64,000 nt of DNA from an uncultured Chloroflexia bacterium (GCA_963754485.1 CAVWFY010000008.1:198754-262753); one strand, 5' to 3'; counted from the first letter of the stretch, positions 47,096 through 64,000 are shown. A program made the numbers and translations. The notes: generated by a model from the sequence alone, not told the origin.

Positions 47096-48556
47096 CTAGA
47101 TCGCGGCCGCTGCCACCCCGACGATCTCGAGCAGGAGGTTCGGGAACACACCCAGGATGATCGTGAGGAACGTGCTGACCGCGAGGCCAGCCCACAGGAG
47201 GCGTCCGTGGCGCAGCCGCGGGAGCTCCCCGGCCGGGTCACGCATGAACATGTAGACCACGACGCGCAGGTAGTAGAAGGCCGCGACCGCGGCGTTGAGG
47301 ACGGTCAGGATCGCGAGCGCCGTCAGCGGGCCGCCGACCTCGACCGCCGCCGAGATCACGAGGAACTTGCCGAAGAAGCCCACGGTCGGCGGGATACCGG
47401 TCAGGCTGAGCAGGAACAGCGTCAGCAGCCAGGCCATCGCCGGCTCGCGGCGAACCAGCCCCGCGAAGGTGGACAGGTTGCTGGTGACGCCCGTCCGCCG
47501 CTGGAGCGCGGCGACCACGGCGAACGCGCCCAGGTTCATGAACGCGTACGCGGCGCCGTAGAACAGCAGGGCCTCCATACCAGCGACATTCCCGGCGCCG
47601 TAGGCGGCGAACCCGACCAGCATGTAGCCGGTGTGCGCGATGGACGAGTACGCGAGCATCCGCTTCACGTTGTCCTGCTGGAGCGCGACCAGGTTGCCGA
47701 GCGTCATCGTGAGGGCCGCCAGGGCCATGAACACGATGTTCCAGTCGATCGCGAGGTCCGCGAGGCCCTCGGCGAACAGCCGGATGATCAGCGCGAACGC
47801 CCCGATCTTGGGGCCGACGGAGAGGTATCCCGTGACCGGGGTCGGGGAGCCCTGGTACGCGTCCGGCGTCCAGTAGTGGAACGGCACCGCGGCGATCTTG
47901 AAGGCGACGCCCGTGGTCATGAACGCGAGGGCCAGGCCGAGGCCCGGCGACATCGGGATAGCCCCGCCGGCCACCTGACCCATGAAGCCCGCGACTTCGG
48001 AGATGTTCGTGGTTCCGGTGATGCCCCAGACGAACGCGAGGCCGAACAGGAAGATCGCGCTCGAGAACGACCCGAGCAGGAAGTACTTGATCGCACCCTC
48101 GGTGCTGTACCCGTCGGTCTTGTGGTAGCCGGCCAGGACGTAGCCCGGCAGCACCATGAGCTCGAGCCCCAGGAACAGGACCAGCAGGTCCCCTGCGGCG
48201 GCCAGGAGCATCGCGCCCGACATCGCAAACACGAGCAGGGCGGCGAACTCCGGCACCGGCAGCCCCCGCTCCTCGAGGTAGTCCGGGGCGAAGGCCATCG
48301 TGAGCGCGATGATCGAGACGAACAGCAGGTCGAGGAACGTGGTCAGCGGGTCCACGTCGTAGGCGCCGCCGAAGGCCTCGAACGTGCTCTGACCGGTGAT
48401 CAGCACCAGGACGGCGATCAGCGCCAGGCCCATGAACGTCGTGATCAGGGCCGGGGCCTTGCGACCCGGGAAGATGAAGTCGACCGTGAGAATCGCGAGG
48501 GCGACCAGGATGGCGGCGATGAACGGCGCCAACACGGTGGCGTCCTGGAAGGTCAC
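47096..48556 (-). CDS. nuoN: NADH-quinone oxidoreductase subunit N
   Basis: EGAIKYFLLG, FKIAAVPFHYWTPDAYQG, KRMLAYSSIAH, GIPPTVGF. Confidence 0.96.
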   Translation of the reverse strand: MTFQDATVLAPFIAAILVALAILTVDFIFPGRKAPALITTFMGLALIAVLVLITGQSTFEAFGGAYDVDPLTTFLDLLFVSIIALTMAFAPDYLEERGLPVPEFAALLVFAMSGAMLLAAAGDLLVLFLGLELMVLPGYVLAGYHKTDGYSTEGAIKYFLLGSFSSAIFLFGLAFVWGITGTTNISEVAGFMGQVAGGAIPMSPGLGLALAFMTTGVAFKIAAVPFHYWTPDAYQGSPTPVTGYLSVGPKIGAFALIIRLFAEGLADLAIDWNIVFMALAALTMTLGNLVALQQDNVKRMLAYSSIAHTGYMLVGFAAYGAGNVAGMEALLFYGAAYAFMNLGAFAVVAALQRRTGVTSNLSTFAGLVRREPAMAWLLTLFLLSLTGIPPTVGFFGKFLVISAAVEVGGPLTALAILTVLNAAVAAFYYLRVVVYMFMRDPAGELPRLRHGRLLWAGLAVSTFLTIILGVFPNLLLEIVGVAAAAI

Positions 48557-48566
48557 GGGTGTCCTC

Positions 48567-50120
48567 CTACCGCCACAGGCCGAGGGCGACGGGTGCGGCC
48601 TGCGAGACGGCGGCGAGCGCGTTGTCGACGGAGCCGGCGATCAGGTCGAGAATCAGGCCCGGCCACAGGCCGAAGACCACGACGAGGACCCCGAGCGGCA
48701 CCAGCGTCAGTGCTTCGACGGGGCGCATGTCGGTCAGGTGGCTTCCCAGGCCCTTCAGGAAGTCCGAGAGCTCGCCGAACAGCACTCGCTGGAGCATCCA
48801 GAGCAGGTAGCCGGCGGCGAGGATCATCACGAACGTTGCGACTGCCGCCGCAGCCGGGTTGGCCGCGAACGTGCCCACCAGGGTCAGGAACTCGCCCACG
48901 AAGCCGGACAGGCCCGGCAGGCCCACCGAGGCGAAGACGAAGAACCCGAATGCCGCCGCGTAGACCGGGACCGCGCTGCCCAGGCCGCCCATCTTGGCGA
49001 TGGTGCGGTCATGGGTGCGCTCGTAGATCACGCCTACGAGGAGGAACAGGGCGCCGGTGATGAGGCCGTGGTTGACCATCTGCAGGATCGCGCCCTGCAT
49101 GCCCTGCTCCTGGAACACGAAGATACCGAGGGTCACGAAGCCCATGTGCGAGACGGACGAGTACGCGACCAGCTTCTTGAGGTCGGGCTGGACGAGCGCA
49201 ACGATGGCGCCGTAGATGATCGCGATCAGGCTCAGGACGATGATCAGCGGGGCCCAGGCCTGCGCCGCCTCGGGAAAGAACGGCAGGGCGAACCGGATGA
49301 ACCCGTAGCCGCCCAGCTTGAGCAGCACGCCGGCCAGGATGACCGAGCCGGCCGTCGGCGCCTCGACGTGCGCGTCGGGCAGCCAGGTATGGAACGGGAA
49401 CATCGGGACCTTGATCGCGAACGCCAGGAAGAACGCACCGAAGGCGATCAGCCCGAAGGTGCCGCCGAACGCGCCCGTCGCCGCGTAGTCGGCCAGCGCC
49501 TGCACGTCGAAGGCGCCCTCCCAGCTGCCGCCGTGCCCGCTCTGGTAGGTGTACGCGGTCGCCAGGATCGCGACCAGCATCAGCAGTGAGCCGACCAGCG
49601 TGTAGAGGACGAACTTGATCGTGGCGTAGATGCGGTTCTTGCCGCCCCAGATCCCGATGATCAGGTACATCGGCACGAGGACCAGCTCCCAGAAGATGTA
49701 GAACAGGAACAGGTCCATCGCCACGAATACGCCGATCATGCCGACTTCCAGGACGAGGAAGGAGATCATGTACTCCTTGACCCGGTACTGGATCGGCCCG
49801 AACGAGGCCAGGATGCTGATCCAGGTCAGCGTCGTCGTCAGGACGACGAGCACGATCGAGAGCCCGTCCACGCCCACGGCATAGTTGATCCCGAAGGTCG
49901 GGATCCAGGCCAGCGACTCCGTGAACTGGAAGGCGGGGTCGCTGGCGACGAAGCCCGCCAGCATGACCAGCGAGACGACCCAGGCCGCCAGCGCGAAGCC
50001 CAGCGCCAGGTAGCGCGCCATGTTCGGGCGGCCCGTGGGCGTGAAGGCGATGACGAGCGCACCGAGGGCCGGCAGGAACGTGACGAGGGTGACCATCGGG
50101 AGGTCGTTGAGCCAGGTCAT
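48567..50120 (-). CDS. nuoM: NADH-quinone oxidoreductase subunit M
   Basis: GVDGLS, YIFWELVL, IKVPMFPFHTWLPDAHVEAP, KKLVAYSSVSH, GLPGLSGFVGEF. Confidence 0.96.
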   Translation of the reverse strand: MTWLNDLPMVTLVTFLPALGALVIAFTPTGRPNMARYLALGFALAAWVVSLVMLAGFVASDPAFQFTESLAWIPTFGINYAVGVDGLSIVLVVLTTTLTWISILASFGPIQYRVKEYMISFLVLEVGMIGVFVAMDLFLFYIFWELVLVPMYLIIGIWGGKNRIYATIKFVLYTLVGSLLMLVAILATAYTYQSGHGGSWEGAFDVQALADYAATGAFGGTFGLIAFGAFFLAFAIKVPMFPFHTWLPDAHVEAPTAGSVILAGVLLKLGGYGFIRFALPFFPEAAQAWAPLIIVLSLIAIIYGAIVALVQPDLKKLVAYSSVSHMGFVTLGIFVFQEQGMQGAILQMVNHGLITGALFLLVGVIYERTHDRTIAKMGGLGSAVPVYAAAFGFFVFASVGLPGLSGFVGEFLTLVGTFAANPAAAAVATFVMILAAGYLLWMLQRVLFGELSDFLKGLGSHLTDMRPVEALTLVPLGVLVVVFGLWPGLILDLIAGSVDNALAAVSQAAPVALGLWR

Positions 50121-52165
50121 CGCGGCTGCCCCACGATCAGCAGGAACGAGCCGGCCATCACGAGCAGGCCGATCGCGATGCCCAGCGCGTAGTTCTGCAC
50201 CCGCCCGGTCTGGATCTTCCGCAGCCCCCCGCCGGCGTCCTTGACGACGGTCCCAATGCCATTGACGGTGCCGTCCACGATCCTGGTGTCGAACCACCAG
50301 AGCGCGGCGGCGACCCGTCCGCCGATGCGGATGAACAGCAGGTCGTTGAGCTCGTCGAACCACCACTTGTTGAGCGAGGCGCGGTACAGGAACCTCGTCG
50401 CGCCGTTGGCGTTCACGAGCGCGTCGATGCGCTCCTGCTTGACGCGGCGCTTGCCCACGCCGAACAGGTAGATGCCGGCGACCAGGCCGAGCGTGGCGAC
50501 GAACACGCTGGACAGGATCAGGTAGCCGTCGATGCCGAACAGCTGGTAGGTCGCGGCCTCGCCGTGCTGGTAGAGCTCCGACTCGATGAACACCGGCTCG
50601 AGCCAGTGCTTGATCGTCGAGGCCCCGAGCGGCAGCCCGAGGGCGATGCCCAGGAACGCCGACGGGATGGCGAGCAGGATCAGCGGCAGGGTCATCGTCC
50701 ACGGAGACTCGTGGACGTGCGGCTCCACGTGCGGGTCGACGCGCGACTCGCCGTAGAACGTCTTGCCCATCAGGCGCCACATGTAGAAGGCGGTCATCCC
50801 CGCCACGACGACACCGATGCCCCAGACCCAGTAGTCGCCGAACTTGAAGGCCTCGCCCAGGATCTCGTCCTTGGAGAAGAAGCCCGCGAACAGTGGGATG
50901 CCGGAGATCGCCAGGGTGCCGATGAGCATCGTGACGTGGGTGATGGGGATCTTCCGCCACAGGCCGCCCATCCGGTTCATGTCCTGCTCGCCGTCCACCG
51001 CGTGGATCACGGAGCCTGAACCGAGGAACAGCAGGCCCTTGAAGAAGCCGTGGGCCATGAGGTGGAAGATGGCGGCCACCCAGGCGCCGATGCCGAGGGC
51101 CGCGAACATGTAGCCCAGCTGCGAGAGCGTCGAGTAGGCGAGGACGCGCTTGATGTCCGTCTGGGTCAGCGCGATCGACGCGGCGAGGATGGCCGTGAAG
51201 ATGCCGATGGCCGCGACCACGACCATCGCCTCCTGCGCGTGGGCGAACAGCGGGTTGGCGCGGGCCACGAGGTACACGCCGGCGTTGACCATGGTGGCCG
51301 CGTGAATGAGGGCGGACACCGGTGTCGGGCCCTCCATCGCGTCCGGCAGCCAGACGTGGAGCGGGAACTGGGCGCTCTTGCCCATCGCGCCGGCGAAGAC
51401 CAGCAGCGCGACCACGACGATCGGGATCACGTTCGTGGCATCCGGCGCGATCAGCTTCTCGAGGGAGTCGGCGATGTTGAGCGTCCCGGTGTTGACGAAG
51501 ATCGCCATGATCCCGAGCGCGAACCCGACGTCGCCGACCCGGTTGACGATGAACGCCTTCTTGGCGGCCAGCGCCGCGGACCGCTTCTGGTACCAGAACC
51601 CGATCAGGCTGTACGACGACAGGCCCACCAGCTCCCAGCCGGCGAACACGAGCAGCCAGTTGTCCGCCAGGACCAGGACCAGCATCGAGAACATGAACAG
51701 GTTGAGGTAGGCGAAGAAGCGCCACGTGGCGTTGTCGTGCGCCATGTAGCCGACCGAGTACAGGTGCACGAGCATGCCGATCGTCGTGACGACGATCAGG
51801 AGGCAGGCGGTCAGGGCGTCCACGTGGAAGCCCATGTCGACCACGAAGTCGCCGGCGGGGATCCAGGTCCACAGGGTGATGTCCAGGCCGTGCTCGCCGA
51901 AGGGCTCGGCGTGCGTCAGAGCCGGGATCACCACGGCCATCGCGATGATCCACACCGCGACCACGGTCGCCAGCGGGACGATCTCGGCGGCCGTGCGCCC
52001 GAAGCGCATTTGCAGGCGGCGCCCGAACAGGGCCGTGAAGGCGAAGCCCAGGATGGGCAGGAGTGGGATCAGCGGGATCAGGATCCCGTAGATGCCGGGA
52101 TCCGCGGCCACGCCGACGGGCTCGGCCTCGACCGCCGCGAAGATCAGGCTCGGGAGGACGTGCAT
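50117..52165 (-). CDS. nuoL: NADH-quinone oxidoreductase subunit L
   Basis: GKSAQFPLHVWLPDAMEGPTPVSALIHAATMV, DIKRVLAYSTLSQLG, GFFSKD. Confidence 0.97.
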   Translation of the reverse strand: MHVLPSLIFAAVEAEPVGVAADPGIYGILIPLIPLLPILGFAFTALFGRRLQMRFGRTAAEIVPLATVVAVWIIAMAVVIPALTHAEPFGEHGLDITLWTWIPAGDFVVDMGFHVDALTACLLIVVTTIGMLVHLYSVGYMAHDNATWRFFAYLNLFMFSMLVLVLADNWLLVFAGWELVGLSSYSLIGFWYQKRSAALAAKKAFIVNRVGDVGFALGIMAIFVNTGTLNIADSLEKLIAPDATNVIPIVVVALLVFAGAMGKSAQFPLHVWLPDAMEGPTPVSALIHAATMVNAGVYLVARANPLFAHAQEAMVVVAAIGIFTAILAASIALTQTDIKRVLAYSTLSQLGYMFAALGIGAWVAAIFHLMAHGFFKGLLFLGSGSVIHAVDGEQDMNRMGGLWRKIPITHVTMLIGTLAISGIPLFAGFFSKDEILGEAFKFGDYWVWGIGVVVAGMTAFYMWRLMGKTFYGESRVDPHVEPHVHESPWTMTLPLILLAIPSAFLGIALGLPLGASTIKHWLEPVFIESELYQHGEAATYQLFGIDGYLILSSVFVATLGLVAGIYLFGVGKRRVKQERIDALVNANGATRFLYRASLNKWWFDELNDLLFIRIGGRVAAALWWFDTRIVDGTVNGIGTVVKDAGGGLRKIQTGRVQNYALGIAIGLLVMAGSFLLIVGQPR

Positions 52166-52177
52166 TTCGATCGCCGC

Positions 52178-52510
52178 CTACTGCCGCATCGCGTCGTACT
52201 CGTCGACGAGTGGCGTCTTCTTGTTGCGGAAGATCGCGATCACGATCGCGAGGCCCACCGTGGCCTCCGCCGCCGCGGCTGCGATGACGATCAGCGCGAT
52301 GGCGGACGCGTCCACGGTCAGCTTGAGCGTGAAGGCCCCGAACGCGATGATCGCGAGGTTGACGGCGTTGAGCATCAGCTCGATGGACATGAGCATGCTG
52401 ATCGCGTTGCGCCGGGCCAGGAAGCCGAAGGCGCCGATCGCGAACAGGAGGCAGGCGAGGACGAGGTAGGCGTCCAGGCTCTGCGAGATGCCGTCGAAGC
52501 CGGAGAGCAT
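52178..52510 (-). CDS. nuoK: NADH-quinone oxidoreductase subunit K
   Basis: RRNAISMLMSIELMLNA, AAAEATVGLAI. Confidence 0.96.
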   Translation of the reverse strand: MLSGFDGISQSLDAYLVLACLLFAIGAFGFLARRNAISMLMSIELMLNAVNLAIIAFGAFTLKLTVDASAIALIVIAAAAAEATVGLAIVIAIFRNKKTPLVDEYDAMRQ

Positions 52511-53046
52511 CAGTCGGTGCTCCCCGTCTCGCGCTTGGCGAGGAAGACCCCGCCGATCACCGCCGCCAGGAGCAGCACGCTCACGATCTCGAAGGGCAGC
52601 GTGTAGTCCGTGAACAGCGTCTGGGCCAGGTCGTTCGCGTTGGTCGCGATGCGCCTGCCGGTCTCACCCCAGTCGGTCGAGGCCACGACGACCGCCATCA
52701 GGAGGGCCAGCACCGCCGCGGCGATGGCGGCCGGGAAAGCCTGCGTCTGGAACACCAGGGACGCTGGTCCAGCCTTGGTCTGGGTCAGCATGATGGCGAA
52801 CAGGACGAGCACGCTGATGGCGCCGATGTAGACCAGCACCTGCGCGGCGGCGACCACCGTCGCGCCCGCGAACACGTACAGGCCCGCGAGCGCCGCGAAG
52901 CAGATGATCATCGCCAGGCCGCAGCGGATGATGTCCTTCATCACCACGACCAGCAGGGCCGACCCGACCATGATGGCGGCGAAGGTCATGAACAGCAGGT
53001 CATCCCACCCGAACCCAAGCAGCGGGATCGTCTCCGGCAGCGTCAC
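52510..53046 (-). CDS. nuoJ: NADH-quinone oxidoreductase subunit J
   Basis: QVLVYIGAISVLVLFAIM, YTLPFEIVSVLLLAAVIG. Confidence 0.95.
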   Translation of the reverse strand: MTLPETIPLLGFGWDDLLFMTFAAIMVGSALLVVVMKDIIRCGLAMIICFAALAGLYVFAGATVVAAAQVLVYIGAISVLVLFAIMLTQTKAGPASLVFQTQAFPAAIAAAVLALLMAVVVASTDWGETGRRIATNANDLAQTLFTDYTLPFEIVSVLLLAAVIGGVFLAKRETGSTD

Positions 53047-53055
53047 GCGGTCCTC

Positions 53056-55710
53056 TCAGCGTTCCTGGGCGTGGGCGGACCCGTTCGCGGACCCGTGGTG
53101 GTGTCCGTTCCCGGTTCCGTTTCCGTTCCCGTTCCCGGTCGCGAGCGAGGCGGGGAGGACGGGGAGCAGCCGGGCCTCGTCGAGGATGCGTCCCTCGGCC
53201 CGTGCACGCTCCGCCCAGTCGCGCTCGCGGCGGATGTAGCTCATCTCCGTCTCGCGCTCGACCGCGGCCAGCGCGAGGAGGTCGATCATCGGCTCTTCGC
53301 GGGACGTGTGGCTGAGCTCGAACTGGTCGCTGTCGCGGACGGCGTCGTACGGGCAGGCGTCGACGCAGATGCCGCACAGGATGCAGCGGCTCTCGTCGAC
53401 CTCGTACTTCTGCAGGACCCGCGGCTTGGGCATCAGCGCGCCGGTGGGGCACGTCTCGGCACAGCGTCCACAGGACACGCAGGGCGTGTCGTTGAGGCTC
53501 ATGTCCAGCGGCGTCGTCACGAGGGTGTCGAAGCCGATGCGCATGAAGTCGTAGCAGGCGGCGCCCACGACCTCGGCGCACACGTTGGCGCACCGGCCGC
53601 AGTCGATGCAGCGGGCCGGCTCGCGCAGGATGAACGCGTGGCTGTCGTCGCGGACGTAGTCGTGGTTGACGCCCGTGAACCGGTTCTCGGTGACGGACCG
53701 GTAGCCGGCGCCCTGGTGGAAGTTCTTCTCCAGGGTCTTGAGCGTCGTGCCGTACTCGATGCCCAGGCGGCGCAGGTCGCAGAACCCGATGGCCTCACAG
53801 GTGCACTGGAGGCAGCGGGTGGACTCGGCCACGGCCTCGTCGCGGGAGTACGGGATCTCGTACTCGAGGTAGCTGGCGTTGCGGGCCTCGGCCTCGAGCG
53901 CCTTGAGGCGGTAGCGCGGCTCCTTGATCTCGCCCGTGAACGGCACGATCGAGAGGAACTCCGGCTGCGGCTCGGCGAGCGTCTGGCGGGTCCGGATGGC
54001 GGCGAGGTCGTTGCCCCGCAGGTAGGCGTCCACCGCGTAGGCGGCGCGACGGCCCTCGGCGATGGCCTGGACCACGGTCGCGGCGCCGATCCGGACGTCG
54101 CCGCTGGCGAACACGCCCGGGCGCCCGGTCTCGAAGGTGACGGCGTCGGCCTGGAGGCGCCGGTTGCGGGTGGCCGAGAGACCCTCGTTGCCGGGACCGA
54201 ACCAACGCAGGTCAGGACCCTGGCCGATGGCGAGCAGGACGCGGTCGCAGGGGATGATGAACTCGGTGCCCGCGGCCGGCTCCGGGCGGCGACGACCGGA
54301 CGCATCGGGCTCGCCCAGCTGCATCCGGATGAACTCGATGCCCGTCGTGGTGCCGTTCTCGTCCTTGATCACGCGCGTCGGGCCGGCCTGGAAGATGGTG
54401 GTGACACCCTCCTCGATGGCCTCGTGGACCTCGCTGGACGCGGGCATGTCCTTCATGTCGCGGCGGTAGACGAGCGTCACCTCGCCGGCGCCCTGGCGGA
54501 CCGAGGTGCGGACGCAGTCCATCGCGGTGAAGCCGCCGCCCACGACCACGACCCGGGTGCCGACGTGACCCGGGTAGGGCAGGCCGAGCGTGGCCGTGCG
54601 CAGGTACTCCAGCCCGTCGATGACGCCGTCGGCATCCTCGTCCGGGATGCCCAGCTTGTTGGTGTCGTAGCAGCCGATGGCGATGACGACGCTGTCGAAC
54701 CCCTGGTTCTGGAGGTCGTCGAGCGTGAAGTCCCGGCCCAGCTCCATGTTGCAGCGCATCTTCCCGCCCAGGCGGGTGACGGACTCGTACTCGGCCTCGA
54801 GGACCTCCACCTTGGGCAGGCGGTACTGCGGGATGCCGTAGCGGAGCATGCCGCCGGGCGCCGGGTCGCGCTCGAAGATCGTCACGTCGTGGCCGGAGAG
54901 CAGCAGGTAGAAGGCCGCGCTCATGCCGGCCGGCCCGGACCCGATGACCGCCGCGCGCCGGCCCGACGGGGCCTGCTTCTCGAACGGCAGCGGCGGGTCG
55001 ATGCCCTCGTCGAGCATCGCCTTGATCACCTGGTCGCCGGCGTAGCGATGGCTGTCGCGGATCGCGATCGCCTCGTCCACCTCGTCGCGCCGGCAGTGCT
55101 CCTCGCACGGGGCGGGGCACACGCGACCGAGCACGCTGGGGAACGGGATCGTGCGCTTGAAGATGCGCACCGACTCGCGCCACTCGGCCTCCGCGTTCGC
55201 CTTGAGGAAGCCGGGGATGTCGATGTGGCTGGGGCACTTGTTCTGGCACGGCGGCAGGCAGTACGCGTTGTGGTCGCTGAAGATCAGCTCGAGGTTGGTC
55301 TTGCGGATCCGGCGCAGCTCGTCGGTCTGGGTGCGGACCACCATGTCCGCCTCGGCCGCGCGGGAGCAGGAGATGGGAGGCTGGTCCTCGCCCTCGACCT
55401 CGACCACGCACATCCGGCAGGCGCCGAAGCCCGGCAGCTTGGGCTCGTAGCACAGCGTCGGGATCTCGATGTCGTTGTCGCGACAGACCTCGAGGATCGT
55501 CTGGCCCTCGAAGCCCTCCACGACCCGCCCGTCGACCTCGATCCGGATCCGGGGCGTGCTCTGCGGTCGCTGCGGCGACTGCGTCGTGATGAGCTGCTCG
55601 GCGAGGGAGTCCTCGCGCGGCGTCGTGGTGTCGTAGACGCGCGGGGTGTCCGGGCGGACCTCCCGGGGACGGTCGAGCGGCGTCTCGGGACGGATGATGA
55701 GGTCGGCCAT
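53056..55710 (-). CDS. 884-aa fusion: NuoG-type Fe-S N-terminus, inserted GltD/NfnB-like FAD/NADPH domain, 2x[4Fe-4S] domain, C-terminal half of NuoI
   Basis: IPTLCY..GACRMC, HNAYC, PCQNKCP, GRVCPAPCEEHC, GSGPAG, GGGFTAMD, YRR, RCLQCTC, CIDCGRC, CVSCGRCAETCP, YEVDESRCILCGICVDACP. Confidence 0.88.
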   Translation of the reverse strand: MADLIIRPETPLDRPREVRPDTPRVYDTTTPREDSLAEQLITTQSPQRPQSTPRIRIEVDGRVVEGFEGQTILEVCRDNDIEIPTLCYEPKLPGFGACRMCVVEVEGEDQPPISCSRAAEADMVVRTQTDELRRIRKTNLELIFSDHNAYCLPPCQNKCPSHIDIPGFLKANAEAEWRESVRIFKRTIPFPSVLGRVCPAPCEEHCRRDEVDEAIAIRDSHRYAGDQVIKAMLDEGIDPPLPFEKQAPSGRRAAVIGSGPAGMSAAFYLLLSGHDVTIFERDPAPGGMLRYGIPQYRLPKVEVLEAEYESVTRLGGKMRCNMELGRDFTLDDLQNQGFDSVVIAIGCYDTNKLGIPDEDADGVIDGLEYLRTATLGLPYPGHVGTRVVVVGGGFTAMDCVRTSVRQGAGEVTLVYRRDMKDMPASSEVHEAIEEGVTTIFQAGPTRVIKDENGTTTGIEFIRMQLGEPDASGRRRPEPAAGTEFIIPCDRVLLAIGQGPDLRWFGPGNEGLSATRNRRLQADAVTFETGRPGVFASGDVRIGAATVVQAIAEGRRAAYAVDAYLRGNDLAAIRTRQTLAEPQPEFLSIVPFTGEIKEPRYRLKALEAEARNASYLEYEIPYSRDEAVAESTRCLQCTCEAIGFCDLRRLGIEYGTTLKTLEKNFHQGAGYRSVTENRFTGVNHDYVRDDSHAFILREPARCIDCGRCANVCAEVVGAACYDFMRIGFDTLVTTPLDMSLNDTPCVSCGRCAETCPTGALMPKPRVLQKYEVDESRCILCGICVDACPYDAVRDSDQFELSHTSREEPMIDLLALAAVERETEMSYIRRERDWAERARAEGRILDEARLLPVLPASLATGNGNGNGTGNGHHHGSANGSAHAQER

Positions 55711-57050
55711 CAGCTGGATCCTGCTGCGGTCGCACCGGCGCCCACCGCGATCGGCGTGCAGACGCCGGCCGGGCAGGTGGAGCGAAGGAGGTGGTCGTCG
55801 AGCTCGGACCGGAAGTATCGCATTGCGCTGGTGAAGGGCAGGGTGGCCAGCCGCTCGTGGTCGCACAGCGCCGAAGCCGCGATGTCGTGCGCGAGGTCGA
55901 CCAGCAGGGCCGGGTCGGTCGGCTTCGGCGTGCCGCCGGCGATGCGGTCGCCGATCTCGTACAGGCGGCGCAGGCCGATCCGGCAGGGGATGGACTTGCC
56001 GCAGGCGGCGTCCGCCGAGAACTTCGTCAGGAGCCGGGCGAGGTCCACGATGCAGGCCCGCTCGTCGGCGATGACCACGGATCCGGAGCCCACGTGGGCG
56101 CCCGCCTCGCGCAGCGCGTCGAACTCGTACGGGGTGTCCAGGAGGTCCGGGGGCAGGATGCCGCCGGTGGGTCCGCCCACCAGGATGGCCTTGAGCTCGC
56201 GACCCCCGGTGCCGCCCGCGAGCCGCACCAGCTCGCGCAGGGGCGTGCCCAGCGGGACCTCGGCGATCCCGCCACCCTCGGGGCCGCGCAGCTGGACGAG
56301 GACCGTGCCGGGGCTGGACGCTGCGCCGATCGCGGCGAATGCCTCGCGGCCGTTGACCATGATCCACGGGACCGCGGCCAGGGTCTGCACGTTGTTGACG
56401 ACGGTGGGCCTGTCGAACAGCCCCTTCTCGGTGGGGTACGGCGGGCGCTGGTCGGGCTGGCCCCGCTTGCCCTCGAGGGCCTTGATGAGGACCGTCTCCT
56501 CGCCCAGCATGTAGGCGCCCTGGACCGGGCGGACCGTCACGTTCACACGGTGGCCGGACCCGGCCGCGTCCTCGCCCAGGAAGCCCGCCTCCTCGGCCGC
56601 GAGGACCGCGCCCTCGAGCATCGTGACCAGCGCCGGGTCGTCGGCCCGCACGGCCAGAATCGCCTCGCTGGCGCCGATCGCGAAGGCCGCGATCGCGAGC
56701 CCTTCGATCACGGCGTACGGGTCGGCGGCGAGCAGCGCCGCGTCGGCCTGGACCGCCGGGTCTGCGCCGTAGCCGTTGGCGATCACGTAGCGCTGGTCGG
56801 CGGGTTGCGCGGCGGCGGCGCGCCACTTCTCGCCGGTCGGGAAGCCGGCCCCGCCGCGGCCCCGGAGACCGGAGCCGGCGATCGTGGCGATGCTCCCGAT
56901 GGCGCCATGGTCCCTGACCGCCCGCCGGAGACCCTCGAAGGCGCCGGCACGGACGGCGGCGTCGAGGTCGGACGGGTCGGCGGCGACGGCGGCCACACGC
57001 TCGAGCAGGACGCTCGGCCAATCACCCGGCGTGGCGAGGAAGCTGCCCAT
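55710..57050 (-). CDS. nuoF: NuoF/HydB-like flavoprotein subunit with degenerate motifs
   Basis: SGLRGRGGAGFPTG, GEET, PTVVNNVQT, GGPTGG, GSGSVV, CGKSIPCR, CPAGVC. Confidence 0.85.
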   Translation of the reverse strand: MGSFLATPGDWPSVLLERVAAVAADPSDLDAAVRAGAFEGLRRAVRDHGAIGSIATIAGSGLRGRGGAGFPTGEKWRAAAAQPADQRYVIANGYGADPAVQADAALLAADPYAVIEGLAIAAFAIGASEAILAVRADDPALVTMLEGAVLAAEEAGFLGEDAAGSGHRVNVTVRPVQGAYMLGEETVLIKALEGKRGQPDQRPPYPTEKGLFDRPTVVNNVQTLAAVPWIMVNGREAFAAIGAASSPGTVLVQLRGPEGGGIAEVPLGTPLRELVRLAGGTGGRELKAILVGGPTGGILPPDLLDTPYEFDALREAGAHVGSGSVVIADERACIVDLARLLTKFSADAACGKSIPCRIGLRRLYEIGDRIAGGTPKPTDPALLVDLAHDIAASALCDHERLATLPFTSAMRYFRSELDDHLLRSTCPAGVCTPIAVGAGATAAGSS

Positions 57051-57709
57051 CAGTTGGCCCGCCCCCCGTAGCCCAGGGAGACGTCCAACGCGGAGCGGAA
57101 CGCCGTCTCGTCGGCGCGGTGCGCCTCGCCGGCCACGGGTGCCTCAACAGCGGGCGGCTCGAAGCGCAGGTGGCGGTAGTAGCTCGCGGTGCCGTAGATC
57201 ATCGCGTACCAGGCGCCGGTCACCCGGGAGATGTGCTTGAGCGCGGCAACCGGGAGGTACCCGTACTCCGCCTGGGTCTCCTCGAGGATGGCCAGCATCT
57301 GCTTCGGGTCGTAGTCATGGGCCTCGAGGATCGCGTCCAGGGGCTCGAGGTCGATGCCGTCGAAGCGGATGAATGCGGGGTCGGCCACCGGTCGGCCGGA
57401 CCGCCGGAGCGCGGACTCCTCGCGACGCTCGCCGTAGGTCTCCGGGGCGCCCCAGTGGACGTGGAAGCGGCCCTTGGTGTCCACGCCGCCCATGTCGATG
57501 CACTCGATGGGGCAGGCCTGGGCGCACTGGAAGCACGTCTCGCACTTGAGCGTGCCGTACTCGTCGTAGAGCAGCTGCAGGCGGCCGCGGAACCTGGGCG
57601 CGACGTCGGCGTGCTGCTCGGGCCACATGATGGTGGCCTTGGGCTGGAAGAACCGCCGCAGGGTCAGGCTCATGCCGCGGACCAGGCCCATGCCGGGAAT
57701 GACGCTCAT
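57050..57709 (-). CDS. Fusion of NuoI N-terminal half and NuoE N-terminal helical domain
   Basis: GMSLTLRRFF...WPE...RFRGR...CETCFQCAQACP (NuoI), then LAILEETQAEYGYLP...IYGTASYY (NuoE); no [2Fe-2S] cysteines. Confidence 0.87.
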   Translation of the reverse strand: MSVIPGMGLVRGMSLTLRRFFQPKATIMWPEQHADVAPRFRGRLQLLYDEYGTLKCETCFQCAQACPIECIDMGGVDTKGRFHVHWGAPETYGERREESALRRSGRPVADPAFIRFDGIDLEPLDAILEAHDYDPKQMLAILEETQAEYGYLPVAALKHISRVTGAWYAMIYGTASYYRHLRFEPPAVEAPVAGEAHRADETAFRSALDVSLGYGGRAN

Positions 57710-57716
57710 CGGACGC

Positions 57717-59088
57717 TCACAGGCTCTTCACGACGACGATCGCCGTCGCGGTCAGGAACAGGTTGAAGAGCGCGGCGGGCAGGAGCCACTTCCACGCGAA
57801 GCCCATCAGGTGGTCGATGCGCACTCGTGGGAAGGTGCCCCGCATCCAGACGAACACGAACACGAAGATGAACGACTTGACCATGAACCAGATCAGCCCG
57901 GCGAACCAGTCCCAGCCGATGTAGGCCAGCGCCATGGCGCCGCCAATGGCCACCAGGTTGAACAGGAGGAAGCCGATGATCAGCGCCTGCCAGGCGGGCA
58001 TGTGGCTGCGGGTCAGGTAGAACGGCAGGGCGAAGAGCACGGTCAGGGCGAGGGGCATGGCCGCCACCAGGATCAGGAGGCCGACGCCCAGCGAGGCTGG
58101 GTCCAGCGCAACCGTGGGCGGCTGGAGCCCGACGAGCGCGAACAGGTCGTTGGTGTTGATCGGCGCGTTCCACGCCCCGAAGAACAGGGTGACCAGCAGC
58201 GCCGAGACGATGAACACGTTCACGTACTCGGCGAAGAACAGGAACCCGAAGCGCATGCCCGAGTATTCGGTCGCGAAGCCGGCGACGATCTCGGAGTCCG
58301 CCTCGGTCAGGTCGAACGGCGTCCGGTTCGCCTCCGCCGTGGCGGCGATGAAGAAGATCAGCGCGCCCAGCGGCTGGCGGAAGACGAACCAGTTCGTGAA
58401 CCAGCCTTCCTGCTGCTCCGCGATGCCGTTGAGGCTCATCGTGCCGGCAAGCAGGATCAGGCCCACGACCGACAGGGTGAGCGGGCAGCTCGTAGGAGAT
58501 CGACTGGGCCGCGGAGCGGATGCCGCCCAGCAGCGAGTACTTGTTGAACGACGACCAGCCCGCCAGGAGCAGGCCCACGACGGTCATGCCGCCCACCGCG
58601 AACAGGTAGAGCAGGCCGATGTTGAAGTCCTGGCCCACGAGTCCCGGCCCGAACGGGATGACCATGAACACCATCACCGCGGTGAGGAACACGAGCACGG
58701 GCGCCCAGGTGAAGACGATCCGGTCCGCGTTGGCGGGGGAGAAGTCCTCCTTGGACAGCACCTTGAGGCCGGCGACCAGGGAGTGGGCAGCGCCACCCGG
58801 CCCGACCCGGTTGGGTCCGACCCGGGTGTTCATGTAGGCGATGACCTTGAGCTCCATGTAGATGATGATGAACGCGGCCGGGATGCTGAACAGCAGGATG
58901 GCCGTGATCGCCACCACGAACCGCACGACCCCCATGTTCGACCCGAGCACGTCCAGCACGAACGGGCCGACGTAGACCGCGCCGAGGACCGTCAGGAACG
59001 GCCCGATCACGAGGACCAGGAGCAGCAGGGGCACGATGACCTTGCCCAGGGTCGTGAGGCCGCGGCTGGGGGGGTTGAGGGTCGTCAT
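57717..59088 (-). CDS. nuoH: NADH-quinone oxidoreductase subunit H; +1 frameshift at 58483-58485
   Basis: RVGPNRVG, KVLSKED, SLLGGIRSAAQSISYELP in one frame; AEANRTPFDLTEADSE, TEYSG, RGTFPRVRID in another. Confidence 0.93.
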
Positions 59089-59119: not shown

Positions 59120-60358
59120 TCACTTGTCGATGCCGCCCATGACCGGGTCGATCGACGCCATGACGGCCATCGTGTCCGCGATCAGGTTGCCCTTCATGAG
59201 CATGCCCACGAGCTGCATGTTGACGAAGGACGGGTCGTGGATCTTCATCCGGAACGGCTGGTCCGTGCCGTCCGAGATGGCGTACGTGCCGTACAGCCCG
59301 CGCGGGGCCTCGACGGCCGCCCAGGCCCGGCCCGGCCGCGGGCGGAGCAGGCGCGGGAGGCGCGCCATGACCGGCCCGTCGGGCATGCTGTGGAGGCACT
59401 GGTCGATGATCCGGATGCTCTCCCGGACCTCGTCGAGGCGGAGCAGGTAACGGTCCAGCGAGTCGCCTCCGTCCCTGGTGCCACGGACCGGGATGTCGAA
59501 CTCGAGCTCCGGGTAGACGGAGTAGGGATGCGCGCGGCGGACGTCGAACGGGACGCCGGCGGCGCGCAGGTTCGGGCCGGTGACGGCCATGCGCAGGGCG
59601 GTGTCCCTGTCCAGCTTGCCGATGCCGCGCATGCGCCGGACGAAGATCTCGTTCTCGTTGAGCAGCCCGATGCTGGCCTCGTGCTGCTTGGCGGCACGGC
59701 TCATCCAGTCGCCCAGGCGGGACATGAACTCGTGGTTGAGGTCGCCGTTCACGCCGCCGATGCGGAAGTAGTTGAACAGCATCCGCTGGCCGGTGATCGC
59801 CGCCAGCATCTCCACGATCTCGTCGCGCTCGATGAAGCTGTACAGGATGGGCGTGAGCCCGCCGAGGTCCAGCGCCATCCAGCCCTGGTAGAGGGCGTGG
59901 CTGGAGACGCGGAGCAGCTCGCCGGTGAGCACGCGGATGTACTCGGCGCGGCGCGGGACCCCCACGTCCAGGAGCTTCTCGAACGCCATCACCGGCGCCC
60001 ACTCCATGAACAGCGAGCTCACGTACTCGAGCGGGTCCACCTGGCTGATGATGTGGTGGTAGTCCGAGGTCTCGCACAGCTTCTCCACGCCGCGGTGGAG
60101 GTAGCCGAGGACCGGGTCCAGGTCCACGACCTGCTCGCCGTTGATCTTGAGCACGACCCGCAGGACTCCGTGCGTGGACGGGTGCTGGGGTCCCATGTTG
60201 AGGAACATCTCGCCGTCGCGGAGGCTGTAGAACTCGGCCTCGCGCTCGGTGCGCGGTGGGTACGGCGGGACGGCCTCGAACGCACCGATCTGGTTGTCGA
60301 GCATGATCCGGGGATCGTCCTCGGACGCGTGCTGGCCGATGGGCGAGTGTGTCGTCAT
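59120..60358 (-). CDS. nuoD: NADH-quinone oxidoreductase subunit D
   Basis: LNMGPQHPSTHGVLR, GYLHRGVEK, EAPRG, DPVMGGIDK (no Ni-binding CxxC). Confidence 0.97.
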   Translation of the reverse strand: MTTHSPIGQHASEDDPRIMLDNQIGAFEAVPPYPPRTEREAEFYSLRDGEMFLNMGPQHPSTHGVLRVVLKINGEQVVDLDPVLGYLHRGVEKLCETSDYHHIISQVDPLEYVSSLFMEWAPVMAFEKLLDVGVPRRAEYIRVLTGELLRVSSHALYQGWMALDLGGLTPILYSFIERDEIVEMLAAITGQRMLFNYFRIGGVNGDLNHEFMSRLGDWMSRAAKQHEASIGLLNENEIFVRRMRGIGKLDRDTALRMAVTGPNLRAAGVPFDVRRAHPYSVYPELEFDIPVRGTRDGGDSLDRYLLRLDEVRESIRIIDQCLHSMPDGPVMARLPRLLRPRPGRAWAAVEAPRGLYGTYAISDGTDQPFRMKIHDPSFVNMQLVGMLMKGNLIADTMAVMASIDPVMGGIDK

Positions 60359-60361
60359 CGC

Positions 60362-60910
60362 TCAGGCCTTCACGGTGCGGCGGACCACGCGCTCCGTCGC
60401 CTGCGACGGGGCGTGCGTCTGCTCCATGTGGCGGACCCCGCCGCCCGGGGACCGCGCCGCGTCGTCGGCAAGGTAGAAGTCCTTGCGCAGCGGGAAGCTC
60501 GTGTAATCGGGGGGCATGTAGATCCGGCGCAGATCGCGGTTGCCCTCGAAGATGATCCCGAACATGTCGTATGTCTCGCGCTCCATCCACTCGGCACCGG
60601 GCCACAGGCCGGTGAGGGTGGCGATCCGCGGGTTGTCGCGCGGCAGGCCGTCGGCGATCACGCGCAACCAGTCCGGCGTCGTCGCCGACCAGAGGTGGTA
60701 GGCGACCTGCATCTGGTTGCCGGTGTCCACGCCGGCGAGGTCGGCCAGGACCGCGAAGTCCAGCTCCGGCTCGTCGTGCAGGGCCGTCATCACCTCGGTC
60801 AGGTCGGCGGCCCCGATCCGGAGCTCGGTCTCGTCGTGGCGCTGGCGCACGGGGCCCGTGACCCTGTCGGCGAAGCGCGCCTCGAGGCGTCTGCGCAACT
60901 GGCGGTCCAT
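60362..60910 (-). CDS. nuoC: NADH-quinone oxidoreductase subunit C
   Basis: LWPGAEWMERETYDMFGI.FEG...LRRI, FPLRKDF. Confidence 0.95.
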   Translation of the reverse strand: MDRQLRRRLEARFADRVTGPVRQRHDETELRIGAADLTEVMTALHDEPELDFAVLADLAGVDTGNQMQVAYHLWSATTPDWLRVIADGLPRDNPRIATLTGLWPGAEWMERETYDMFGIIFEGNRDLRRIYMPPDYTSFPLRKDFYLADDAARSPGGGVRHMEQTHAPSQATERVVRRTVKA

Positions 60911-60912
60911 GC

Positions 60913-61686
60913 CTAGACGTCCTGGGGCACGTTGGGGCCGATGGGCCGGTCCGGCCACTGGCCGCGCCGCTCCTTGACGAGCTGGCCCAGCTTCATCATC
61001 CCGTAGATCAGGCCCTCGGGGCGCGGCGGGCAGCCGGGGACGTACACGTCCACCGGCATGAGCCGGTCGATGCCCTCGATGGTCGAGTAGCTGCGCTTGT
61101 AGCGGCCCCCGGAGCACGTGCAGTCGCCCATCGCGACGCACCACTTGGGTTCCGGCATCTGCTCCCAGAGACGGACGAGCGGGCCGGCCATCTTGGTGGT
61201 CAGCGTACCGGCGACGATCAGCACGTCCGCCTGGCGGGGGCTCGCCCGGAACGGGAACATGCCCCAGCGGTCCATGTCGTTCTTGGACGTGGCCGCGGAC
61301 ATCATCTCGATGGCGCAGCAGGCCAGGCCCGACAGGAGCGGCCAGAGGCTGTTCATCCGGATGAGATCGACGAGCAGGTCCGCCTTGGTGGGGATGACCT
61401 CGAGCTGGCCCCAGCGCGCGGTGTCGGCGTTGGCGAGCTCGTCGTGGGCGAGCTCCCGCAGGTGCGTGAAGGCAGGCGCCGTGCTTGCGTAGGAGCCCGG
61501 GCTGGCCGAGGTCCACAGGGTGTTGGGGACCACGATGGGGGCCATGAGGTCGGCCGGGGAGGCGGCGACGAGGGACGCCGGGTGCACGCGCTCGTCGGGG
61601 GGCGCCTGGAGGCCGGCCTCGGGCCCGACGTCCAGGCCCGTGCCCTCGTCCGTGCCCTCGTCCGGGCCGTCAGGCGTCAACGCCAC
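60913..61686 (-). CDS. nuoB: NADH-quinone oxidoreductase subunit B (acidic N-terminal extension)
   Basis: GLACCAIEM, ASPRQAD, PEPKWCVAMGDC, VDVYVPGCPPRPE. Confidence 0.97.
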   Translation of the reverse strand: MALTPDGPDEGTDEGTGLDVGPEAGLQAPPDERVHPASLVAASPADLMAPIVVPNTLWTSASPGSYASTAPAFTHLRELAHDELANADTARWGQLEVIPTKADLLVDLIRMNSLWPLLSGLACCAIEMMSAATSKNDMDRWGMFPFRASPRQADVLIVAGTLTTKMAGPLVRLWEQMPEPKWCVAMGDCTCSGGRYKRSYSTIEGIDRLMPVDVYVPGCPPRPEGLIYGMMKLGQLVKERRGQWPDRPIGPNVPQDV

Positions 61687-62039
61687 GTGAGCACCCCCTT
61701 GCGCCAGGCGTAGGCGAGCCCGAAGAGCAGGATCACGACGAAGACGAGCATGGTGACGAAGAGTCGCAGCGGGTCCTGGGCCTGCTGGAAGATGAGCGCC
61801 CACAGGAAGATGAAGATCACCTCGATGTCGAAGGCGACGAACATCAGGGCGTAGATGTAGAACGAGATGCCGAAGCGGGCGTGGGTGTCGCCGTAGGTGT
61901 CGATGCCCGACTCGTACGGATAGCCCTTGTGCGCATCGCCGCGGGTACGGTGTGAGATCAGCCAGGCGAGCCCGATCGTGCCGAACACGAACAGCGTGCC
62001 GGCGACAACGAACCCGACGACGTACCAGATCCCGGTCAC
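61677..62039 (-). CDS. nuoA: NADH-quinone oxidoreductase subunit A
   Basis: YPYESG, FYIYALMFVAFDIEVIF, YAWRKGVLTW. Confidence 0.96.
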   Translation of the reverse strand: MTGIWYVVGFVVAGTLFVFGTIGLAWLISHRTRGDAHKGYPYESGIDTYGDTHARFGISFYIYALMFVAFDIEVIFIFLWALIFQQAQDPLRLFVTMLVFVVILLFGLAYAWRKGVLTWR

Positions 62040-62096
62040 GAGGTCCTCGAGGGCGTGGCAATGATCCCGCCCGCGGAGACGCGGCACGGCGCGGTC

Positions 62097-63463: not shown

Positions 63464-63473
63464 CGTGGGGATC

Positions 63474-64000
63474 CTAGCCCCGGCGCCGATCCCGAGCCCG
63501 GGCCCAGCCTCGATCCCCGCCACGGGTGCCCAGCCCGAGCGCGAGGCGGAGGCCCGGACCGACCAGTCCGTGCCCGCCGAGCAGGACGGGGACCGGCGCC
63601 TCCACGGCCGCAGCCGTCAGTTCGGCCAGCCACGGGTCGCGCACCCTGTCGGAGAGGAGGAGGTCGCTCGCGAATCGATCCTCGGCGGGCGGCCAGCCGC
63701 GCTCGTCGCCCCCGTAGTGGTGGGCCATCAGCACGCGGCTGTCCAGGAGCGCGCCTTCACACAGCGCGGCCGTGAGCCGGCCCAGGCTCCCGGGTCCATC
63801 CCTGTCGAGAAGGTCGCCGAGGAGACTCCGGGGCGGGCGGCGGTTGGGGCGGCCCACGGTCGCGCCGATCCCCGCGGTTCGCAGGCCCCGCTCCTCGACG
63901 AGCGCGCGCGTCCGGGAGCGGGTCGACCGCTCCAGCCAGCGCAGGTCCGCGGCGGACGTTCGACCCGCGATCAGGAGCTCGGCCCCGAGGTCGGCAGCGA
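63474..64000 (-). CDS. C-terminal part of a conserved hypothetical protein (runs off the window)
   Basis: Open frame to the window edge; VEERG, DSRVL, EDRFASD, PVLLGGH motifs; function not recognised. Confidence 0.6.
   Translation of the reverse strand, partial: AADLGAELLIAGRTSAADLRWLERSTRSRTRALVEERGLRTAGIGATVGRPNRRPPRSLLGDLLDRDGPGSLGRLTAALCEGALLDSRVLMAHHYGGDERGWPPAEDRFASDLLLSDRVRDPWLAELTAAAVEAPVPVLLGGHGLVGPGLRLALGLGTRGGDRGWARARDRRRG

Follow-up and report, generated by a model that had tools for sequence, protein, structure and literature searches.

The 11 to 14 core subunits of respiratory complex I are among the most conserved in bioenergetics, and one of them, the ferredoxin-type subunit NuoI, is treated as a single invariant block. 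In a ferredoxin fold with two [4Fe-4S] clusters, each cluster is held by three cysteines from one motif and a fourth from the other. Here we analyzed a complex I operon in which nuoI is divided between two genes, with a flavoprotein module encoded between its halves. The operon lies in a stretch of 64,000 nucleotides with 70% G+C (GCA_963754485.1 CAVWFY010000008.1:198754-262753), hereafter the window, from a soil Chloroflexota metagenome-assembled genome (MAG) that is 57% complete.

The closest described relatives of the intervening module are Bfu-type enzymes, namely, NfnABC and StnABC. In NfnABC, the N-terminal domain of NfnC anchors this subunit in the cleft between NfnA and NfnB, and the A2-A4-A5 cluster branch of NfnA, directed toward the former formate dehydrogenase (Fdh) site, is a dead end (PMC11829005). 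The bifurcation site has been placed at the B1 cluster, the flavin mononucleotide (FMN), and the C1 cluster, with the anchoring role given to the N-terminal domain of NfnC (PMC10482914, PMC11829005). A BC core carrying the C1 cluster and extra cluster or Zn domains in B is held to define the true bifurcating members (PMC9304861, PMC11829005).

Results

NuoI is divided between two fusion proteins

All genes of the operon are on the minus strand, in the order nuoA-B-C-D-H-[NuoI N-half::NuoE N-domain]-[NuoF-like]-[2Fe-2S-GltD-NuoG-like Fe-S::NuoI C-half]-J-K-L-M-N, abbreviated below as A-B-C-D-H-[I-N::E-N]-F-[G*::I-C]-J-K-L-M-N. NCBIfam and Pfam scans of the window thereby reproduced the gene order given by the original prediction, which had been made from the sequence alone. 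The complex I core set (A-D and H-N, including the complex-I-specific NuoA) is fully encoded in the window, with NuoI as two halves. The three genes between nuoH and nuoJ, here called P0001, P0003, and P0002, and their parts are as follows.

57050..57709, minus strand: P0001 gene, a fusion of 219 amino acids that joins a NuoI N-half to a NuoE/NfnC N-terminal anchoring domain (family scans)
57455..57709, minus strand: NuoI N-half, P0001 residues 1-85, with an N-terminal segment specific to NuoI (PRFRGR) as well as the first ferredoxin motif (TIGR01971, 7ar7_I, and Chloroflexota NuoI alignments)
57509..57544, minus strand: P0001 motif CETCFQCAQACP, residues 56-67 (C56, C59, C62, C66, P67), invariant in 69 sequences
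57152..57337, minus strand: NuoE/NfnC-type N-terminal helical domain, P0001 residues 125-186 (PF01257 positions 2-63 of 145)
55710..57050, minus strand: P0003 gene, NuoF/NfnB-like flavoprotein core of 446 amino acids (TIGR01959, 326 bits, below the cut-off of 559)
53056..55710, minus strand: P0002 gene, 884 amino acids, with 2Fe-2S, GltD/NfnL-type FAD-NAD(P)H, NuoG/HydA-like Fe-S, and NuoI C-half parts and a tail (family scans, PDB matches)
55324..55551, minus strand: N1b-type 2Fe-2S domain, P0002 residues 54-129 (PF13510, E 4e-20; C87, C98, C101, and C115 invariant)
54001..55260, minus strand: GltD/NfnB(L)-type domain with two 4Fe-4S sites and FAD/NAD(P)H folds, P0002 residues ~151-570 (PF14691, PF07992, TIGR01318)
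53431..53814, minus strand: NuoG/HydA-like Fe-S domain, P0002 residues 633-760, with CLQCTC..C at 633-644, motif A at 701-711, and motif B at 744-755 (PF22117 Fer4_Nqo3 at 694-759)
53281..53421, minus strand: NuoI C-half, P0002 residues 764-810, including the NuoI-type FE(L) segment (TIGR01971 positions 71-116, E 1e-11)
53350..53385, minus strand: P0002 motif C, CILCGICVDACP, residues 776-787 (C776, C779, C782, C786, P787), invariant in 45 sequences

The two proteins match NuoI in complementary, non-overlapping parts. Residues 8-83 of P0001 cover positions 1-65 of the 121 positions of TIGR01971 (E 2e-13) and positions 12-88 of 180 in NF004536, and the C-half in P0002 covers TIGR01971 positions 71-116. 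Aligned to Arabidopsis TYKY (7ar7_I), P0001 residues 9-73 fall on 23-87 and the P0002 tail on 99-147; the corresponding ranges are 14-88 and 92-133 in E. coli NuoI (7awt_I) and 6-69 and 86-123 in Thermus Nqo9 (2fug_9). When other Chloroflexota with a canonical NuoI are taken as reference, the N-half falls on residues 3-67 and the C-half on 76-121, and the cut therefore lies in the loop between both motifs.

The resemblance goes beyond the generic Fer4 motifs, as both the N-terminal segment and the post-motif C-terminal segment of NuoI are present. The N-half retains the pattern ..LTL..FF.PK.T..YP....L.PRFRG (LSLTLKYFF..PRFRG in the TYKY alignment), which generic ferredoxins lack, and when the last region of P0002 was scanned alone, TIGR01971 outscored every other family. 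P0001 has a single CxxCxxCxxxCP motif, and P0002 has three CxxCxxCxxxC motifs, at 701-711 (A), 744-755 (B), and 776-787 (C). Neither protein is thus a NuoI of the usual kind, one chain of ~150-200 amino acids with both CxxCxxCxxxCP motifs; the two chains together supply both, scoring 50.3 and 43.9 bits against a TIGR01971 cut-off of 113 bits. Their location is that of nuoI, between nuoH and nuoJ, with the N-half right after nuoH and the C-half right before nuoJ in ~80 loci.

These results bear out what had been proposed for both fusion genes. The coordinates and quoted sequences were exact for the 219-residue product encoded after nuoH (a NuoI-like start, one motif at 57509-57544, then NuoE-like sequence) and for the 884-residue product encoded before nuoJ (ending with the second NuoI half, motif at 53350-53385, three motifs in all), and the suggested profile search of both proteins with NuoI (TIGR01971), NuoE, and Fer4 models found matches to complementary NuoI parts.

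The motifs of the two halves are probable partners

In P0002, motifs A and B together match the Nqo3-type ferredoxin domain (PF22117), and P0002 684-764, which contains both, aligns with CpI hydrogenase 131-210; all cysteines of this NuoG/HydA-like domain are invariant. In CpI, the equivalent motifs in 131-210 bind the FS4A/FS4B pair. As A and B form the two-cluster domain of [FeFe]-hydrogenase and NuoG-type proteins, motif C and the P0001 motif are each left partnerless in their own chain. All eight of the cysteines in these two motifs, and both prolines, are invariant from Limnocylindria to Ktedonobacteria (69 P0001-type and 45 P0002-type sequences), although overall identity falls to 24-46%. 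Since the fourth cysteine of each motif ligates the other cluster, eight invariant cysteines are sensible only if the halves meet. We infer that the halves would rebuild the N6a/N6b ferredoxin fold in trans, and we consider it likely that this split NuoI is real, functional, and reassembled in this manner.

It is unlikely that the halves rebuild no common fold, with each holding one cluster at most (the fourth ligand being water or a residue other than cysteine) or forming N+N and C+C homodimers, and with a shorter or rearranged wire to N2. Ferredoxin folds arose by duplication of a half, and homodimers of halves are conceivable in principle. AlphaFold2 also gives no confident fold for either half: with 45 orthologs, the 2Fe-2S and GltD parts of P0002 are modeled well, but the predicted local distance difference test (pLDDT) is ~25 for residues 578-884, and the NuoI N-half of P0001 has a pLDDT of 38-53. 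On the other hand, invariance of the eight cysteines and both prolines over such distances is expected only if all are ligands, the fourth cysteine of a motif in the canonical fold points to the other cluster, each half specifically resembles its own half of NuoI, flanks included, and complex I has a single NuoI site.

Another possibility is that motifs B and C pair in cis within P0002, that the P0001 motif pairs with A or stays single, and that NuoI was replaced rather than split. The B-C spacing of 31 residues is that of clostridial ferredoxins, the Pfam dicluster models Fer4_7 and Fer4_9 span 744-790, and polyferredoxin chains align over both motifs. We find this very unlikely, as it conflicts with the alignment of A and B as one unit to PF22117 and CpI 131-210, it would leave motif A and its four invariant cysteines partnerless, and for the motif C segment, together with the FE(L) region that follows the motif, the highest scores come from NuoI families.

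The inserted cassette resembles a trimmed Nfn/Stn module

The best PDB matches of P0002 are NfnA of Caldicellulosiruptor NfnABC (9bov_A 4-700, E 6e-165) and StnC of Sporomusa (8oh5_C 3-701, E 6e-143). P0002 combines the 2Fe-2S domain, the NfnL/GltD domain (with C151/155/159 and C198/202/206 invariant), and the NuoG-like clusters that characterize the A subunit of Bfu/NfnABC-Stn enzymes. It lacks the Fdh-like C-terminal domain: P0002 has 884 amino acids versus 1172-1178 in these proteins, the alignment stops at about target residue 700, and the NuoI C-half stands in its place. The tail at approximately residues 853-884 (53056-53150) is a low-complexity Gly/Asn/His-rich segment, GNGNGNGTGNGHHHGSANGSAHAQER, which varies among relatives.

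P0003 matches best NfnB (9n5u_B, 9bov_B), HydB, and StnB (8oh5_B, residues 113-527 of 584), and it is devoid of the N- and C-terminal cluster domains of bifurcating BfuB. At its nucleotide site, NGYGADPAVQ replaces the canonical NADESEPGTFKDR, and its N3 motif reads CGKSIPC instead of CGKCxPC. All split-type enzymes have N(G/A)Y(G/D)ADP.. for the canonical N(A/C)DESEPGTFKDR and keep the GLRGRGGAGF flavin loop and GEE(T/S). At the second cysteine position of N3, three families (that of the window among them) have Ser, Thr, or Ala, and a fourth family of the class and the Ktedonobacteria have Cys. The FMN branch of the module looks reduced, though conserved.

The helical domain of P0001 is the sole confident part of its AlphaFold2 model (pLDDT 75-97, 69 diverse sequences). 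Foldseek matched it to the N-terminal domains of NfnC (9bp5_C), StnA (8oh5_A), FdsG, and HydC, with a root-mean-square deviation (rmsd) of 1.0-1.8 A over ~65 residues. P0001 has no thioredoxin-like 2Fe-2S domain and no 2Fe-2S cysteines after the helical domain. In families f2 and f4 (the labels f1-f5 are our own), the E-part keeps a degenerate thioredoxin-like domain that has lost the second cysteine pair; it is truncated in the genus of the window.

The cassette differs from classical NuoEFG in all three subunits, as E stops after the helical domain, the F motifs are altered, and the 884-residue protein has a GltD insert and no Mo-like domain. It also differs from the Bfu BC core (C1 2Fe-2S; B2-B5 cluster/Zn domains), P0003 being partial and P0001 being without the thioredoxin-like domain. 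Judged by its homologs, the cassette is a trimmed Bfu-type NfnABC/Stn module, in the order C-B-A, and not NuoEFG. With no Fdh-like domain in its A subunit, no terminal cluster domains in B, and no C1 2Fe-2S domain in C, the module should not bifurcate by the published criteria. The proposed "inserted dehydrogenase module" thus stands as a three-gene electron-input cassette, with its identity refined from NuoEFG to Nfn/Stn-type by the PDB and Foldseek matches; the view of the 884-residue protein as NuoG-like overall has to be given up in favor of an NfnA/StnC-type protein without a Fdh-like domain, in which a GltD flavoprotein domain is inserted in a NuoG-like Fe-S domain.

Dispersed arrangements and the origin of the split

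In family f3 the genes form two groups. One is A-C-H-J-K-L-M-N, and the other is B-D-[I-N::E-N]-F-[G*::I-C]-x-MidA, the last gene encoding a methyltransferase. In Ktedonobacteria the split set is divided among A-C-D-H, B-[I-N::E-N]-F-[G*::I-C], and J-K-L-M-N clusters, and these genomes also have a canonical operon of 14 genes in which NuoI is intact (L113, L112, and L115 in Thermogemmatispora carboxidivorans; L021-L023, L107-L109, L111, and L116). T. carboxidivorans is cultured and has a complete genome, in which the fusion protein (WP_052888281.1) is annotated as "hypothetical protein"; other carriers are named Ktedonobacterales. The dispersed sets sum to exactly one subunit set, and from these complementary counts it appears that the three Ktedonobacteria clusters belong together as one enzyme.

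The split-type NuoB and NuoD of Ktedonobacteria are 53-58% and 43% identical to those of the window, whereas the proteins of their own canonical operons reach 42-47% and 36%. As the split-type copies are nearer, the split type looks like one lineage. The nested order H-[I-N..I-C]-J, found in three families, is most simply explained if the nuoI gene of an operon A-B-C-D-H-I-J-K-L-M-N received the three genes as one in-frame insertion. Family f3 and the Ktedonobacteria carry the same genes dispersed, so the polarity of this evolution is only inferred.

The module is homologous to soluble NfnABC/Stn, and 11-subunit complexes are common in Chloroflexota (PMC3144371). The three genes might then encode a soluble Nfn/Stn-like transhydrogenase that is merely co-transcribed, with the membrane complex working without them as an 11-subunit ferredoxin-type enzyme. 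This seems highly improbable: such a complex would be left entirely without NuoI, the module is devoid of the bifurcation parts and of the tetramerizing Fdh-like domain, and in the dispersed genomes nuoB travels with the module, in f3 together with nuoD and MidA.

The split is a nearly constant feature of the class

A scan of species-representative genomes gave 498 relatives, and the loci of the best 80 were analyzed. These best 80 of 498 come from Limnocylindrales/Chloroflexota MAGs of many studies, some of them closed chromosomes, and nearly all of their sufficiently long loci keep A-B-C-D-H-[I-N::E-N]-F-[G*::I-C]-J-K-L-M-N. Full-length P0001 relatives were present in 59 of 61 close genomes, 147 of 151 genomes of the class, and all 35 genera (35/35), which is the survey of relatives that the original prediction had called for. 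Gene junctions consist of overlaps of 1-4 nucleotides or gaps of at most 18 nucleotides, and both fusion proteins align with their relatives over the full length and in one frame. Open frames of ~700 amino acids had hinted at in-frame I-E-F fusions; none was found in the 57 loci examined for fusions, and these long frames are explained as alternative frames that stay open where the DNA is GC-rich. The probability of an artifact, be it misassembly, frameshift or decay of nuoI, or chimeric binning, is negligible, for although the MAG is 57% complete and has one indel-type frameshift in nuoH, the same junctions recur in ~80 assemblies of many studies, in closed chromosomes, and in the genome of a cultured isolate, with both fusion proteins aligning full length in one frame and strong residue conservation.

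All 61 class genomes that are at least 92% complete contain two NuoI half-matches on the same strand, ~4.3 kilobases (kb) apart. A NuoI match above the TIGR01971 cut-off was found in none of the 61, in a test that is insensitive, as only 7 of 14 control genomes pass it. In family f4, 21 of 25 genomes have nothing NuoI-like beyond the two halves. The number of nuoA genes was used as a second test, since the nuoA model was positive in exactly nine control genomes, those with complex I; nuoA is single copy in 56 of the 61 class genomes. By these counts, the split enzyme is the sole complex I in most of the class.

A spare nuoI was also sought in the genome of the window. The only full-span NuoI-like frame (G000:C14:21391-21672) lies on another contig, encodes a HycF-type ferredoxin of a group-4 [NiFe]-hydrogenase operon, and was rejected as the NuoI of the complex I operon. 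That operon (G000:C14:14695-22256) is formate-hydrogenlyase-like and includes HyfB-type antiporter subunits, the HycF-type ferredoxin, a HycG-type small subunit, and a HycE-type large subunit with Ni-Fe cysteine motifs (CGVC...ELCYACTDR), with HypE-like and transporter genes nearby. Two conditions under which the split would have been doubted, an intact nuoI serving the operon and a misassembly at its junctions, were therefore absent: the search found as full-span NuoI-like frame in this genome only the hydrogenase ferredoxin, and in the 61 class genomes the half-matches but no match above the insensitive cut-off, and the same gene order occurs in ~80 independent assemblies, including closed chromosomes, and in a cultured isolate.

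Beyond Chloroflexota, the genome scan and a homolog search gave, besides Chloroflexota-type records, only two bins with Acidobacteriota-type labels, at 72-73% identity. These two (L062 and L106), labeled Candidatus Sulfomarinibacteraceae and Candidatus Polarisedimenticolia, have the full Limnocylindrales operon order, and their labels are probably the result of mis-binning or mislabeling rather than transfer. The parts are currently annotated as "hypothetical protein", "ferredoxin", "NAD(P)H-dependent oxidoreductase subunit E", and "FAD-dependent oxidoreductase", and such genomes consequently look as if they had no nuoI.

The other genes of the operon

The remaining genes of the operon, and one gene upstream, are as follows.

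62237..63523, minus strand: NDUFAF7/MidA-type methyltransferase gene upstream of nuoA, of a complex I assembly factor family (PF02636, E 9.5e-48)
61677..62087, minus strand: nuoA (NCBIfam NF005839, E 5e-25)
60913..61500, minus strand: nuoB, the N2 subunit; 5' end approximate, inside a longer open reading frame (ORF), 60913-62061 (TIGR01957, 210 bits, above the cut-off)
60362..60950, minus strand: nuoC; 5' end approximate, inside the ORF 60362-61516 (TIGR01961, E 4e-30)
59120..60358, minus strand: nuoD (NF004739, 404 bits, above the cut-off)
57717..59088, minus strand: nuoH, N-half and C-half in two frames with an apparent 1-nucleotide frameshift near 58483-58490; stop at 57717-57719
52510..53046, minus strand: nuoJ (NF005163, E 1e-34)
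52178..52510, minus strand: nuoK (NF004320, 100 bits, above the cut-off)
50117..52165, minus strand: nuoL (NF005141, 728 bits)
48567..50117, minus strand: nuoM (TIGR01972, 592 bits)
47096..48556, minus strand: nuoN (TIGR01770, 426 bits)

In nuoH the frame changes after ..SISYELP, within 58470-58500, and the C-terminal half (LTLSVVG..VVVKSL) is in another frame. As five relatives (L028, L033, L029, L044, L046) keep a single intact frame of 456 amino acids, the frameshift is most likely an assembly error, a 1-nucleotide indel in a C-run, and not the mark of a pseudogene. Other frameshifts among the relatives are found at a different site in nuoH (L027) and in the G* gene (L024). The NuoH of this lineage, at ~456 amino acids, exceeds the usual length by ~110, with an extra hydrophobic stretch at approximately residues 300-400 of the joined protein amid conserved NuoH segments.

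The MidA/NDUFAF7-family gene (PF02636) is located just upstream of nuoA in the window and, in family f3 (L026:3389-4537), just downstream of B-D-[I-N::E-N]-F-[G*::I-C], a repeated linkage of a MidA-type complex I assembly factor with peripheral-arm genes. A weak match to a sortase domain (PF04203, E 2.5e-5, below the gathering score) was seen at 45486-46265 on the minus strand.

Discussion

The comparison of gene content, profiles, and gene order leads us to regard this operon as best explained by a respiratory complex I that is real and functional and belongs to a type of its own, specific to this lineage. In the assembly that we propose, the N-half, fused to the NuoE/NfnC-type anchoring domain, and the C-half, fused to the NfnA/StnC-type C-terminus, would meet to rebuild the ferredoxin fold, and each cubane would be bound by three cysteines of one chain plus a fourth of its partner chain. 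This domain would occupy the NuoI site, between the NuoG-like clusters and N2 of NuoB. The branch that is a dead end in NfnA would here be extended into the NuoI C-half and onward to N2 and menaquinone.

Electrons would then enter by oxidation of NADPH at the GltD-type FAD and pass through the NfnA-type clusters, N6a/N6b, and N2 to the quinone, and this flow would drive the proton-pumping arm formed by A, H, and J-N. The NuoF-like subunit could be a second entry, for NADH, or could be mainly structural. That NADPH is the main donor has, in our estimate, about an even chance of being right.

Several points weigh against this interpretation. The genome is incomplete (57%), and the assembled nuoH contains a frameshift. 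The two halves stay below the curated NuoI cut-off even when summed (50 + 44 versus 113 bits), and the AlphaFold models are unreliable across the Fe-S regions of both chains, so that the trans pairing rests on homology and exclusion. The alignments to NfnA and StnC run on through motif C, and an NfnA-derived cluster motif may contribute to the C-half. A second nuoA is present in 5 of the 61 class genomes. Finally, NADPH specificity is drawn from the homology to StnC/NfnA and from a YRR motif that we take to be a mark of such specificity.

A broader reading joins these elements. The only complex I in the respiration of Limnocylindria would be an NADPH:menaquinone oxidoreductase that pumps protons, and N6a/N6b would be an obligate two-chain heterodimer, at once wire and clasp, that matures only when both ends of the Nfn-derived module are in place. 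There would be a second nucleotide site at the retained NuoF-like flavin, and the enzyme would represent a second, independent evolutionary route from the 11-subunit core to a complex I driven by pyridine nucleotides. Taken as a whole, this reading is tentative, and we consider it less likely than not. If it is true, the second nucleotide site would allow an exchange between NADH and NADPH coupled to the quinone pool, or the production of NADPH by reverse electron flow driven by the proton-motive force.

From a biological perspective, Limnocylindria are abundant in soils and lakes, and an environmentally abundant class may thus feed NADPH into respiration, instead of or besides NADH. In this complex I, a core Fe-S domain is split, so that a pair of clusters in the main electron wire would have ligands from both chains. 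A trimmed transhydrogenase module, probably NADPH-linked, stands in for the classical NADH module. The locus is relevant to the question of how the ancestral core of 11 subunits acquired its electron-input modules, and it would be a natural case of modular rewiring by in-frame insertion. Because the cultured Thermogemmatispora has the same split (WP_052888281.1), the idea is directly testable.

The full-text literature that was searched, including PMC3144371, PMC4758237, PMC6776052, PMC9304861, PMC10482914, and PMC11829005, with subscription-only papers outside its scope, contains no description of a split NuoI or of a complex I of this architecture, in agreement with the original prediction, which knew of none.

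Compared with canonical NuoI/Nqo9/TYKY (NDUFS8; TIGR01971; 4HEA/2FUG chain 9, 7AWT I, 7AR7 I), the two halves share the N-terminal segment, the two CxxCxxCxxxCP motifs with NuoI-type flanks, the position between nuoH and nuoJ, and, presumably, the role as a wire from the NuoG-type clusters to N2. They differ in that the chain is broken at the loop separating the motifs, the resulting two polypeptides are encoded ~4.3 kb apart with an entire flavoprotein module in the interval, and each half is fused to a subunit of that module.

The NfnABC/StnABC enzymes (C. saccharolyticus 9BOV/9BP5, S. ovata 8OH5, and T. sibiricus 9N5U; PMC11829005, PMC10482914, PMC9304861) share with the module the gene order C-B-A, the flavoprotein core of B, the anchoring domain at the N terminus of C (rmsd 1.3-1.8 A), and an A subunit in which a 2Fe-2S domain is combined with a GltD/NfnL FAD-NADPH domain inserted in a NuoG-like Fe-S domain, with the same cysteine motifs. 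In contrast to theirs, the A subunit here is without an Fdh-like domain, B is without terminal cluster domains, and C, in this genus, is without the C1 domain; moreover, the NAD site is altered and the B1/N3 motif has Ser. NfnABC/StnABC are soluble, whereas in the module described here the NuoI halves would make the connection to a membrane quinone reductase.

The predicted Nuo-Bfu complex I of Geobacter, Deferribacteres, Planctomycetes, and Nitrospirae (Schut et al. 2022, PMC9304861) similarly has a Bfu-type input module in a complex I operon. However, it is a 14-subunit operon with a complete BfuABC, for which confurcation of NADH and ferredoxin was proposed, and the GltD domain, the split NuoI, and the fusions are not described there (PMC9304861). 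The Mbx-like operons of Thermotoga and proteobacteria (Degli Esposti 2015, PMC4758237) also place a GltD-type NAD(P)H flavoprotein at the NuoI position. The flavoprotein of those operons, which belong to a hydrogenase-related, Mbx-type complex, is said to take over from NuoI, whereas here NuoI is kept but split, in a nuo operon that encodes NuoA and a NuoF-like subunit.

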